From the NCBI RefSeq assembly GCF_003334335.1, contig NZ_QOWQ01000010.1: DNA of 64,000 nt; one strand, written 5' to 3'. How positions within the stretch are numbered: position 1 is the stretch's first letter; each line of letters starts with the position of its first letter. Positions 308 to 47,940 of this stretch are shown one piece after another. The stretch is from Escherichia coli (GTDB lineage: Bacteria; Pseudomonadota; Gammaproteobacteria; Enterobacterales; Enterobacteriaceae). The notes under the pieces were generated by a model. It saw nothing but the letters and a program-made list of their open reading frames with translations. It was not told where the DNA came from and made no database searches. The position numbers and the translations under genes are program-made.

Positions 308-1907
<1,600 letters not shown>

Positions 1908-3878: not shown

Positions 3879-5138
<1,260 letters not shown>

Positions 5139-9976: not shown

Positions 9977-11410
9977 CTAATTGTTCTGATAAATATCTTT
10001 ATACAAACGGCTTTCAAAACGCACTAACGGAATACGGCGATTACGCTGATCCGCAGGTTCTACTGCATAGCCAGAAAGATATTGCACAAACGCCATTCGT
10101 TGCCCGCTCGCTGTGGTAATGAATCCCGCCAGGTTATATACCCCCTGCAACGAACCGGTTTTCGCTGAGACTTTTCCATCCACGCCCGCCTGATGCAGAC
10201 CTGCACGGTACTGCAAAGAGCCGTCATAGCCCGCCAGCGGCAGCATGGAGATAAAGTTAAGTTCATTGTCGTGTTGGGCAATGTATTGCAGCACCTGCAT
10301 CATGGTGGCGGGGGCAATCAGGTTATGCCGCGAAAGCCCTGAACCATCGGCAATAATGGTGTTTCCAATATCGACACCGGCTTGCTGGCGCAGGATCTGA
10401 CGCACGGCGTCCGACCCGGCCCGCCATGTTCCAGGCACATTGAAGCGCGCATGGCCTATCATGCGGAAAACCGTATCGGCGATCATGTTGTCCGACTTTT
10501 TCAGCATAATCTTAAGCAGATCGTGCAGCGGGGCCGACTGTTTACTGGCAACTACCGTTCCAGGTTCGTTAACCTGAGTCTGGCGCAGCAGTGTTCCGCT
10601 CCAGGTGATACCCGCCTGTTTTAACTCATCTTTCAGAATTGCACCGGCATAGCTGGCTCCATCCTGCACGGCAAAAGCCAACGGGAGCGGCTCAGAACGT
10701 TGTGGCAGGCATCCCGTCAGCGTAAAGCGGTTCAGGTCGCCTGGCACCACATCCAGTTCGCAGTATTGCGCTTCGGCAGAACCACGGGGGAGGGTGCGTA
10801 CCTGGCTGAACATCGTAACGGGGTAATAAGATGCCACGCGTATAAAAGCCATATCACCAGGCTTTGGGGCACTGTAGAGCGAGACGGAGAAACAGTTGCG
10901 GTCAACTATGGCGGCGGCAGGCGGAGCGCTAAAGCATTGTGTCATGTCATTCCATGGCCAGCCGGGGGCTTTATCGTGGCTGGCGAAAATGGAGGTATCT
11001 ATCAACACATTGCCATCGATTTGGTTGACGCCAGATTTTTTCAAAGTCGCGACCATATTGCGAATATCCTGACGTTTTAACGTCGGATCGGCACCAAATC
11101 GCGCCACTAAGTCACCCTTAAGTACGCCGTTTTCCACATTGCCTTTGGTTTCAAGCGTCGTGGTAAAACGAAAATCGGGGCCGAGTTGAATCAACGCCGC
11201 CAGCGCAGTAATCACTTTCTGGGTACTGGCAGGCAGCGCCATCTGCTGACTGTGGTAATCAATAGCGGGGGCCGACGCGCCGACTTTTTGCACCATCAGG
11301 GCAAGGTTGGCACCAGCGGGGAGTTGAGTAATGTACTCATCAACATTTGCGGCCTGAACACTGAACGCTATACAGCTGGTCAATCCGATGATAAATCTGG
11401 AAAATCGCAT
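9977..11410 (-). CDS. dacB: D-alanyl-D-alanine carboxypeptidase/endopeptidase PBP4 (DacB)
   Basis: 477-aa ORF with signal peptide and active-site STQK motif. Confidence 0.95.
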   Translation of the reverse strand: MRFSRFIIGLTSCIAFSVQAANVDEYITQLPAGANLALMVQKVGASAPAIDYHSQQMALPASTQKVITALAALIQLGPDFRFTTTLETKGNVENGVLKGDLVARFGADPTLKRQDIRNMVATLKKSGVNQIDGNVLIDTSIFASHDKAPGWPWNDMTQCFSAPPAAAIVDRNCFSVSLYSAPKPGDMAFIRVASYYPVTMFSQVRTLPRGSAEAQYCELDVVPGDLNRFTLTGCLPQRSEPLPLAFAVQDGASYAGAILKDELKQAGITWSGTLLRQTQVNEPGTVVASKQSAPLHDLLKIMLKKSDNMIADTVFRMIGHARFNVPGTWRAGSDAVRQILRQQAGVDIGNTIIADGSGLSRHNLIAPATMMQVLQYIAQHDNELNFISMLPLAGYDGSLQYRAGLHQAGVDGKVSAKTGSLQGVYNLAGFITTASGQRMAFVQYLSGYAVEPADQRNRRIPLVRFESRLYKDIYQNN

Positions 11411-11529
11411 AATCTCGCGCTAACAACCTGGAATCGAGCCGTCATACTACGGCGCAACGCCCTATAAAGTAAACGATGACCCTTCGGGAACTTCAGGGTA
11501 AAATGACTATCAAAATGTGAATTGTAGCT

Positions 11530-11563
11530 GACCTGGGACTTGTACCCGGGTCGGTATTTTTTT
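11530..11563 (+). terminator. Leader terminator/attenuator upstream of greA (GraL-type)
   Basis: GACCTGGG-ACTTGTA-CCCGGGTC hairpin followed by T7 run about 95 nt upstream of the greA ATG. Confidence 0.5.
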
Positions 11564-11657
11564 GCTTCTGGTCCCGGTAAGGAGTTATGCCGGGCAGGCC
11601 GAACAGCCGGGGTGGGTGAAGACTTGCCCTATCAGGAATATTCAAGAGGTATAACAA

Positions 11658-12134
<477 letters not shown>

Positions 12135-12175
12135 GAATTACCCAATACTCAAGATGTTGATGTATTGTAAAGAAA

Positions 12176-12206
12176 GGAAAAAGGCCGCTATGCGGCCTTT
12201 TATCAA
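12176..12206 (+). terminator. Terminator between convergent greA and yhbY
   Basis: AAAAAGGCCGCTATGCGGCCTTTTAT: GC hairpin flanked by A-run and T-run, so potentially bidirectional. Confidence 0.7.
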
Positions 12207-12289
12207 CGAACAGAGCGTGGCATTTTGCTCTCCTGCCTGCGGAAAACCCCTCGTTTTACACAGCAAATGTGTGTAACTTTAGGATAATC

Positions 12290-12583
12290 TTAGCGTGGCA
12301 GCGAGATTTTACGTTCTTTAGTTGGGCGATAAAGCACCAGCGTTTTACCGATGACCTGTACATTACAGGCGCCGGTTTCGCGCACGATAGCTTCCACGAT
12401 CAAGGTTTTAGTTTCGCGATCTTCGGTGGCGATTTTCACCTTGATGAGTTCATGGTGCTCTAACGCTTGTTCAATCTCGGCCAGCACCCCTTCGGTCAAA
12501 CCATTACTGCCAAGCAGAACAACTGGCTTGAGCGGATGTGCCAGACCTTTCAGGTGCTGTTTTTGTTTAGTACTCAGATTCAT
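12290..12583 (-). CDS. yhbY: CRM-domain RNA-binding protein YhbY
   Basis: 97-aa ORF MNLSTKQKQHLKGLAHPLKPVV..., divergent from rlmE. Confidence 0.9.
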   Translation of the reverse strand: MNLSTKQKQHLKGLAHPLKPVVLLGSNGLTEGVLAEIEQALEHHELIKVKIATEDRETKTLIVEAIVRETGACNVQVIGKTLVLYRPTKERKISLPR

Positions 12584-12708
12584 CGTATTTTTTGCTTACG
12601 TTGGGATTGAAAACGGGTCATTCTACCGCCATCTCCCATATATCACCAAATAGGCGCGTAAAAATTTACGCAATTGGTTACGATGAGTTATCCCCATGGG
12701 AAAGTTAA

Positions 12709-13338
12709 ATGACAGGTAAGAAGCGTTCTGCCAGCTCCAGCCGCTGGCTTCAGGAACACTTTAGCGATAAATATGTTCAACAGGCACAGAAAAAGGGGTT
12801 ACGTTCCCGTGCCTGGTTTAAACTTGATGAAATACAGCAAAGTGACAAACTCTTTAAACCGGGAATGACGGTTGTCGACCTTGGTGCTGCTCCGGGTGGT
12901 TGGTCACAATATGTGGTCACCCAAATTGGCGGCAAAGGCCGCATCATCGCTTGCGATCTTTTACCTATGGATCCTATCGTTGGTGTGGACTTTCTTCAGG
13001 GCGATTTTCGTGATGAACTGGTGATGAAAGCACTGCTGGAGCGCGTTGGCGACAGCAAAGTCCAGGTTGTCATGTCCGATATGGCACCAAACATGAGCGG
13101 AACACCGGCGGTGGATATCCCCCGTGCCATGTATCTGGTGGAACTGGCGCTAGAAATGTGTCGTGATGTATTAGCGCCAGGTGGCAGTTTTGTAGTGAAG
13201 GTGTTCCAGGGCGAAGGTTTCGATGAGTATCTAAGGGAAATTCGCTCCCTGTTTACGAAGGTCAAAGTTCGTAAGCCGGACTCTTCTCGTGCACGTTCGC
13301 GGGAAGTGTATATTGTAGCGACCGGGCGTAAACCCTAA
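12709..13338 (+). CDS. rlmE: 23S rRNA U2552 2'-O-methyltransferase RlmE (FtsJ/RrmJ)
   Basis: 209-aa ORF with SAM-binding motif [11 protein letters not shown]. Confidence 0.95.
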
Positions 13339-15403: not shown

Positions 15404-15434
15404 AAAACCCCGGGGCGTGCTCCGGGGTTTTTTC
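15404..15434 (+). terminator. Rho-independent terminator after ftsH
   Basis: AAAACCCCGGGGCGTGCTCCGGGGTTTTTT. Confidence 0.75.
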
Positions 15435-47907: not shown

Positions 47908-47940
47908 AGCGTTGCGTTAATCAAAACGCAACGTCTTCTT
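47908..47940. terminator. Hairpin terminator between convergent rsmI and yraK
   Basis: GTTGCGTT-AATCAA-AACGCAAC stem-loop followed by T-rich tract in the 42-bp gap. Confidence 0.5.

Follow-up and report, generated by a model that had tools for sequence, protein, structure and literature searches.

GraL, the leader terminator of Escherichia coli greA, and structurally similar greA leader hairpins in Pasteurellaceae and Vibrio

The dacB-greA spacer and the terminator within it

The 64-kb window (the whole stretch of DNA analysed here) carries, around the element under study, the gene order obgE (+), dacB (-), greA (+), yhbY (-), rlmE (+) and ftsH (+). The genes dacB and greA are divergent, and the 247-nt spacer that separates them contains two promoter regions, with no gene having its 3' end there; the same layout is found in the RefSeq record of strain MG1655. 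Around greA the window was identical to MG1655 (NC_000913.3) at 5001 of 5001 positions, in the reverse orientation, so that a window position x is converted to MG1655 position 3340373 - x. The features of the region are listed below.

9977-11410, minus strand: dacB (from the ORF list)
11476-11504, plus strand: greA promoter P1, sigma70-type; -35 ATGACC at 11476-11481, 17-nt spacer, -10 TAAAAT at 11499-11504
11487-11514, plus strand: greA promoter P2, sigmaE-type, overlapping P1; GGAACTT at 11487-11493, 16-nt spacer, TCAAA at 11510-11514
11509-11526, plus strand: 5' segment of GraL, single-stranded, corresponding to +1 to +18 in the P1 transcript (from the fold and PMC6829880)
11527-11555, plus strand: GraL terminator hairpin with an 11-bp stem (from the sequence, the fold and Rfam RF01769)
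11527-11537, plus strand: stem I, GCTGACCTGGG (from the sequence)
11538-11544, plus strand: loop, ACTTGTA, 7 nt (from the sequence)
11545-11555, plus strand: stem II, CCCGGGTCGGT (from the sequence)
11556-11567, plus strand: U-rich tail A-U7-G-C-U2, the zone of imprecise termination; T7 at 11557-11563
11568-11657, plus strand: read-through leader, G+C-rich and predicted to be structured; Shine-Dalgarno region AAGAGG at 11644-11649
11658-12134, plus strand: greA coding sequence, 158 aa, the gene under the leader terminator (from the ORF list and RefSeq annotation)

The 11 pairs of the stem comprise seven G-C, one A-U and three G-U pairs, the last at positions 1, 3 and 8 counted from the base. 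With a G+C-rich hairpin, a short loop and seven T residues after a single A, the element has the make-up of an intrinsic (Rho-independent) terminator. The preliminary description of this DNA had reported a hairpin and a T7 run at 11530-11563; both are present in the sequence, and this interval corresponds to an 8-bp core plus the T7 run, but it leaves out the bottom pairs that 11527-11529 form with 11553-11555. The distance of about 95 nt given from the end of the T run to the greA ATG (11658) is exact.

Folding of the region yielded -21.4 kcal/mol (z = -3.75), which was matched by only one of 200 dinucleotide shuffles, and in a consensus scan of 10500-13000 the hairpin was the top terminator-like site and had the longest stem. 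A permissive terminator scan returned seven sites in 2.5 kb, compared to 2.8 expected. Under strict criteria (a stem of at least 9 bp, at least five G-C pairs and at least seven T in nine), the element and only three other sites were found on both strands of the window.

These three other sites are located on the plus strand at 15406-15429, 34445-34469 and 47910-47933, the first of them directly after ftsH. A symmetric hairpin, AAAAGGCCGCTATGCGGCCTTTT, was also seen at 12179-12201 between the convergent greA and yhbY genes; it is terminator-like on both strands, and the sub-threshold matches of the Rfam families STnc540 and STnc420 at this position represent the terminator motif alone.

The element at 11527-11567 is almost certainly the published GraL intrinsic terminator of the E. 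coli greA leader. It agrees base for base with the '11 bp stem followed by AU7GCU2' described for GraL by Potrykus et al. 2010 (PMC2836576). Rfam RF01769 (Enterobacteria greA leader) gave a full-length match at 11441-11562 with a score of 127.5 bits (E = 9.9e-25), for a gathering score of 60 bits, and pairs the identical 11 stem positions. When the P1 +1 is set at 11509, the landmarks of Dylewski et al. 2019 (stem start at +19, hairpin end at +48 and tail end at +59) fall exactly on the element, +19 being 11527 and +59 being 11567. The 49-59-nt P1 transcripts (PMC6829880) would accordingly have their 3' ends at 11557-11567; for P2 transcripts starting at 11520 we computed 38-48 nt, compared to the 37-47 nt quoted in 2019, a gap within the authors' own margin of +/-2 nt. 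Since sequence identity and landmark coordinates agree, the identification is as firm as sequence analysis allows. No difference in the element was observed between the window and GraL of E. coli K-12 (PMC2836576, PMC6829880), the sequence, position, promoters, stem and tail being the same, and the name GraL, which had been given to a short leader transcript, was the right one.

The notion that the hairpin is a chance structure, or the terminator of a neighbouring gene, has practically no probability: permissive scans do give many hairpin-plus-T sites, and upstream of greA in 109 diverse bacterial genomes no enrichment of sense-strand terminators was detected (42 sense vs. 37 antisense matches), but the divergent orientation of dacB means that no upstream gene has its 3' end here, the z-score and the Rfam E-value (1e-24) speak against chance, the hairpin is invariant among the E. 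coli genomes examined, and the transcript-release and reporter data published for termination at the GraL sequence already refute such a reading (PMC2836576).

The finding of GraL at this site is correct but already known, from experiments published in 2010 and 2019 as well as from the Rfam family. A graL annotation is absent from two MG1655 RefSeq records, and none of 12 sampled E. coli matches to the region had an annotated feature beneath it. As GraL is missing from the standard RefSeq annotation of E. coli, MG1655 included, searches of unannotated sequence can be expected to come upon it again and again.

Conservation, start sites and the question of an antiterminator

The 68-nt GraL region was found in all of the complete E. 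coli genomes searched (5426/5426) and was identical in 5102 of the 5426. Even the lowest-ranked of 12 spread-sampled matches, with 95.6% identity, had an unchanged hairpin and tail and differed solely by the loss of 3 nt from the 5' single-stranded segment and by one substitution beyond the tail. E. coli strain KW21 lacks the TGT at 11516-11518, which lies between the two start sites P1 and P2, and has G for A at 11579, with hairpin and tail intact.

Beyond E. coli, RF01769 matched sequences in E. albertii, Enterobacter, Citrobacter and Photorhabdus (79 bits). The Photorhabdus stem is almost wholly rewritten and still paired, with one non-canonical pair, and in Salmonella, Pectobacterium, Chimaeribacter and Plesiomonas a stable hairpin followed by a U-tract occupies the equivalent position (-11 to -21 kcal/mol). 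The stems of E. albertii, Enterobacter and Salmonella differ by single substitutions that create or remove a wobble pair; double changes were found in Pectobacterium at pairs 4, 5 and 11, with G-C/A-U replaced by A-U/G-C at pairs 4 and 5, and in Chimaeribacter at pair 1. Stem covariation in the Enterobacterales was read from per-sequence folds, as MAFFT misaligned Photorhabdus, Plesiomonas and Pectobacterium, and R1, a covariance model for which seven Enterobacterales terminators were used, pushed the Pectobacterium bulge out of register. By the count of the original authors, 17 of 18 stem changes in relatives keep the pairing (PMC2836576).

The RF01769 element was absent from two insect endosymbionts. 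Four Morganellaceae-like metagenome loci (L149, L156, L159 and L165) have kept a P1-like promoter, AGTAAACGATGACC...TAGAAT, upstream of greA; no convincing terminator was detected in their 220-nt leaders, in which the best candidate had -9.6 kcal/mol and a poor T tail. In view of these loci the element is not universal even in the Enterobacterales, and this lineage may have lost it.

The P1 start was located by primer extension, and initiation there occurs with ApU in vitro (PMC2836576); in the window the +1 of P1 is the A at 11509, and positions 11509-11510 read AT, which fits ApU initiation. P2 is an exact match to GGAACTT-N16-TCNAA, the consensus quoted in PMC2836576, and its +1 is placed at about 11520 (AA), 11 nt 3' of the P1 start; it is transcribed by the Sigma-E holoenzyme with ApA initiation (PMC2836576). 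By sequence motif, the two overlapping promoters are located directly upstream of GraL, and the sigmaE motif is conserved in Salmonella, Citrobacter, Enterobacter, Pectobacterium and Chimaeribacter. As the published primer extension and in vitro transcription put both the P1 and the P2 +1 upstream of it, the hairpin does lie within the greA 5' UTR, where it had been placed. Two further 5' ends, P3 and P4, map 3' of the terminator; the authors judge them to be, probably, processing products (PMC2836576), and on that judgement no greA start site falls beyond 11563.

Downstream of the tail, three hairpins are predicted in the read-through leader at 11568-11640 (-30 kcal/mol over 102 nt), one of which would sequester an AGGAG/ATG pair at 11580-11589. 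Two candidate leader peptides were considered and rejected. The first, a 10-codon frame with its ATG at 11587, lies 2 nt beyond AGGAG and lacks conservation in Salmonella; the second is a 33-aa ORF in Salmonella, whose E. coli counterpart has five codons and begins upstream of +1.

In classical attenuators, such as those of trp and pyrBI of E. coli, an intrinsic terminator between the promoter and the first codon sets expression. GraL resembles these in being a leader terminator that controls the downstream gene; it differs from them in having neither a conserved leader peptide nor an alternative structure, and in that its effector increases termination. An organization of the attenuator or riboswitch type, with competition between the terminator hairpin and an antiterminator upstream of it, is nevertheless suggested by two observations: Naville and Gautheret described 'a clear antiterminator structure' as detectable in each cluster of greA/rnk leaders (PMC2965389), and the RF01769 model carries three helices 5' of the terminator. 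These helices, however, which make up the first 71 positions of the model, correspond to 11441-11511, upstream of the mapped starts at 11509 and 11520, and are therefore not in the RNA; when nine Enterobacterales were aligned, compensatory changes were seen at none of the 15 pairs of these helices, and 21 of the 135 cells were broken. No antiterminator was seen in the folded P1 and P2 transcripts either. The RNA ahead of the stem is only 18 nt (P1) or 7 nt (P2) long, and with the 3' arm blocked the 5' part folds to merely -0.2 kcal/mol, so that no competing structure can form. In addition, termination efficiency is constant across growth and roughly constitutive (PMC2836576), GreA enhances termination and does not relieve it, and the feedback on GraL survives when the native promoter is replaced by placUV5 (PMC6829880). 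We therefore regard an attenuator of this kind as highly improbable.

As the start sites leave no room for an antiterminator, the reading of Naville and Gautheret 2010 (PMC2965389) is not applicable to the E. coli element. The greA/rnk leaders of their work share with GraL a 5' terminator in the orientation of the Gre-family gene; the difference is that theirs was a computational survey which assumed antiterminators. The word 'attenuation', used in the preliminary description, can be retained in its loose sense, that of a partly efficient leader terminator whose action is raised by GreA, but not in the sense of a classical attenuator with an antiterminator, as none was found.

Within 11441-11511 the part that is invariant across the Enterobacterales is AAAGTAAACGATGACCC, which comprises the P1 -35 element and a dacB promoter-like match on the opposite strand. 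In the alignment of nine Enterobacterales the -10 element (TAAAAT or TAGAAT) is conserved without being invariant, and so is the sigmaE motif in most species. Judged by these patterns, the 5' part of RF01769 resembles conserved promoter DNA and not a structured RNA. Approximately two-thirds of the Rfam model, some 68 nt before the mapped starts, would thus appear to be promoter DNA, a point that may be of use to curators.

The dacB promoter-like match itself is motif-based; it occupies 11444-11473 on the minus strand and reads TTTACT (11473-11468)-N18-TAGTAT (11449-11444). Its equivalent in Pasteurellaceae is TTTACT-N17-TATTAT.

Termination at GraL and its control by GreA

The functional evidence on GraL comes from two papers of one research group (PMC2836576, PMC6829880), which between them established, for this very sequence, the promoters, termination, transcript release, the presence of GraL in vivo, and the feedback with its cis requirements. 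Termination was 60-66% efficient in vitro as well as in vivo (PMC2836576). Single-round transcription with purified holoenzymes produced RNA clusters of 50-60 nt from P1 and 40-50 nt from P2; these RNAs were not chased by Gre factors and were released from immobilised templates (PMC2836576). Both clusters were also observed in vivo by northern analysis, with RNase III and RNase E not needed (PMC2836576). The 3' ends are spread across about ten adjacent positions, an imprecision set by the three bottom stem pairs, and efficiency is set by stem length (PMC2836576). Addition of the terminator cut the activity of a P1P2 fusion by about two-thirds, and deletion of greA de-repressed the leader fusion approximately 3-fold (PMC2836576). 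The lowering of greA expression by the terminator, which had been proposed from the sequence, is thus a published effect of about 3-fold.

As reported in the second study, GreA raises GraL termination in vivo, which constitutes a negative feedback (PMC6829880). This feedback is promoter-independent and needs the GraL sequence in cis; it requires the catalytic residue D41 of GreA and correlates with GraL abundance (PMC6829880). It also depends on the +1 to +18 segment together with the native hairpin sequence: scrambling of +1 to +18 reduced GreA repression from 2.5-4.9-fold to 1.2-1.7-fold, and deletion of the leader beyond +59 left the feedback unaffected (PMC6829880).

The course of events at the locus is as follows. 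Polymerase starts at P1 (11509) or P2 (about 11520), transcribes 18 or 7 nt, and then the hairpin and A-U7-GC-U2. About two-thirds of the polymerases release their RNA at some ten adjacent positions, giving rise to GraL RNAs of 37-59 nt, and about one-third read through to yield greA mRNA. In vivo, catalytically active GreA raises GraL and lowers read-through, in a manner that depends on GraL in cis and not on the promoter. For the way in which GreA raises termination we infer a possible route: where complexes have backtracked in the U-tract, cleavage stimulated by GreA may offer the polymerase repeated chances of termination, and the wobble-weakened stem base, together with some further factor, might contribute to the effect.

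Another view of the locus is that the terminator serves chiefly to make GraL as a trans-acting sRNA, the lower expression of greA being a by-product. Overproduction of GraL improved competitive fitness in LB and changed more than 100 transcripts, and scrambled GraL did neither (PMC2836576); nudE mRNA has been named as a likely trans target, along with some 40 synthetic-lethal partners, in the authors' own work cited in PMC6829880; and for greA alone, two strong promoters directed into a terminator of 66% efficiency would seem wasteful. On the other side, the 2010 study presented no direct target and its predicted yhbY target failed (PMC2836576), GraL supplied in trans leaves greA unaffected (PMC2836576, PMC6829880), and the 18-nt segment varies among the Enterobacterales and has lost 3 nt in one E. 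coli, which amounts to weak conservation of a seed. A chiefly trans-acting purpose thus seems unlikely to us; it would be compatible with the cis role, and both can hold. According to Dylewski et al., one other well-documented dual cis/trans RNA is SreA of Listeria monocytogenes (PMC6829880). SreA and GraL are both prematurely terminated leader RNAs with reported cis and trans roles, but SreA has a ligand-binding aptamer, whereas GraL has merely 18 or 7 nt before its terminator hairpin.

An additional scenario, which concerns the proposed action of GreA on the polymerase at GraL, is that the feedback is indirect, with GreA altering another factor and with that factor, be it a protein, Rho or a small molecule, acting in turn on the GraL sequence. 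The effect was seen in vivo only and never reproduced with pure components (PMC2836576, PMC6829880), for which reason the involvement of some extra factor, or of an indirect route, is suspected. The specific GraL sequence is needed besides the structure, and the authors themselves keep both direct and indirect models and propose Rho as a candidate (PMC6829880). The need for GreA D41, in contrast, points to action on backtracked polymerase; Hfq, the Nus factors (NusA, NusB, NusE and NusG) and sigmaE induction were tested and excluded as requirements (PMC6829880); and inspection of 11509-11567 revealed no evident binding-site-like repeat. We consider an indirect route quite possible, although on balance we lean against it.

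greA leaders outside the Rfam family

The collection of greA loci consisted of 120 genome loci (recognised by the conserved greA codon pattern), 53 metagenome loci (recognised by the N-terminal codons for MKQIPMTVRGA) and eight further Vibrio loci from seven species. In Pasteurellaceae, dacB is again divergent from greA, and the Pasteurellaceae-like loci (L019, L066 and L123-L173) carry a hairpin followed by TTTTGTTTT between -70 and -16 from the greA ATG. Among 11 distinct Pasteurellaceae leaders, the 5' arm resembles (G/A)ACUGCGGCA and the 3' arm has CGUGGUU at its end, with UUUUGUUUU coming next; 16-33 nt separate the end of the element from the ATG. Five of the 14 pairs of this hairpin show double compensatory changes (RNAalifold), and the base of the stem is wobble-rich, as it is in E. 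coli.

In Vibrio (L035, L085 and L183-L189), the upstream neighbour of greA is a divergent porin gene, and a hairpin with a U-tract is located between -73 and -30 from the greA ATG, about 40 nt upstream. This element was found in eight species, with double changes at seven of its ten pairs. The z-scores of the Pasteurellaceae and Vibrio representatives ranged from -2 to -5.6. As these elements lie less than about 45 nt from the ATG, the greA promoter has to be upstream of them or at most within them; they therefore belong to the leader, and expression of greA requires the polymerase to pass through them.

Several other features were observed in these leaders. In Vibrio, the U-tract and the Shine-Dalgarno sequence have a second small hairpin, CCAAAG-N5-6-CTTTGG, between them, and a conserved block, TTTAAGATGATTTAG...GTTTACAC, is present upstream. 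Rfam RF02904 (Aggregatibacter sRNA 69) matched the Rodentibacter locus L019 at 773-854 (-), i.e. -170 to -89 on the greA strand; this match overlaps the dacB promoter-like block and not the hairpin.

An RF01769 search gave no match to the Pasteurellaceae or Vibrio elements, and model R1, searched among 42 sources, recovered its training sequences only, the best non-training matches being two Shewanella greA leaders with E of about 1. Because both models miss them, the Pasteurellaceae and Vibrio hairpins have the same architecture as GraL, with no demonstrable common descent. They share with GraL the gene, the strand, a divergent upstream neighbour and a hairpin followed by TTTTGTTTT; they differ in their position, 16-45 nt before the ATG as opposed to about 95 nt, and in that no sequence similarity is detectable. 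Their structures are well supported. That they terminate transcription is suggested by their hairpin-and-U-tract form, and a dependence on GreA is putative.

In Shewanella (L007 1336-1380 on the minus strand and L086 4495-4517 on the plus strand), a compensated hairpin of 8-10 bp is followed by 7 nt and GCTTTTGTTT; it directly precedes the greA Shine-Dalgarno sequence, in a geometry unlike that of a canonical terminator. Directly before greA, many gamma-proteobacteria have what reads like the final part of a coding sequence in the same direction, putatively carB, so that hairpins found there may be terminators of that gene.

That 5' terminators are frequent on greA-family genes across bacteria was the general point made in 2010 (PMC2965389), and the extension to Pasteurellaceae and Vibrio was partly anticipated there; it is an increment and not a discovery. 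Tentatively, and with more doubt than confidence, we suggest that GraL-type terminators are an old and functionally conserved control of greA across Enterobacterales, Pasteurellaceae and Vibrionaceae, in which the terminator itself senses GreA activity. In such an arrangement the wobble-weakened stem base and the interrupted U-tract would make termination dependent on the rescue of backtracked polymerase by GreA, and GreA would gauge its own activity on its own leader. These greA leader hairpins outside RF01769, unrelated in sequence and conserved in structure, may be of use to those who work on greA control, and if the Pasteurellaceae and Vibrio elements respond to GreA as that of E. coli does, the feedback mechanism could be studied comparatively.
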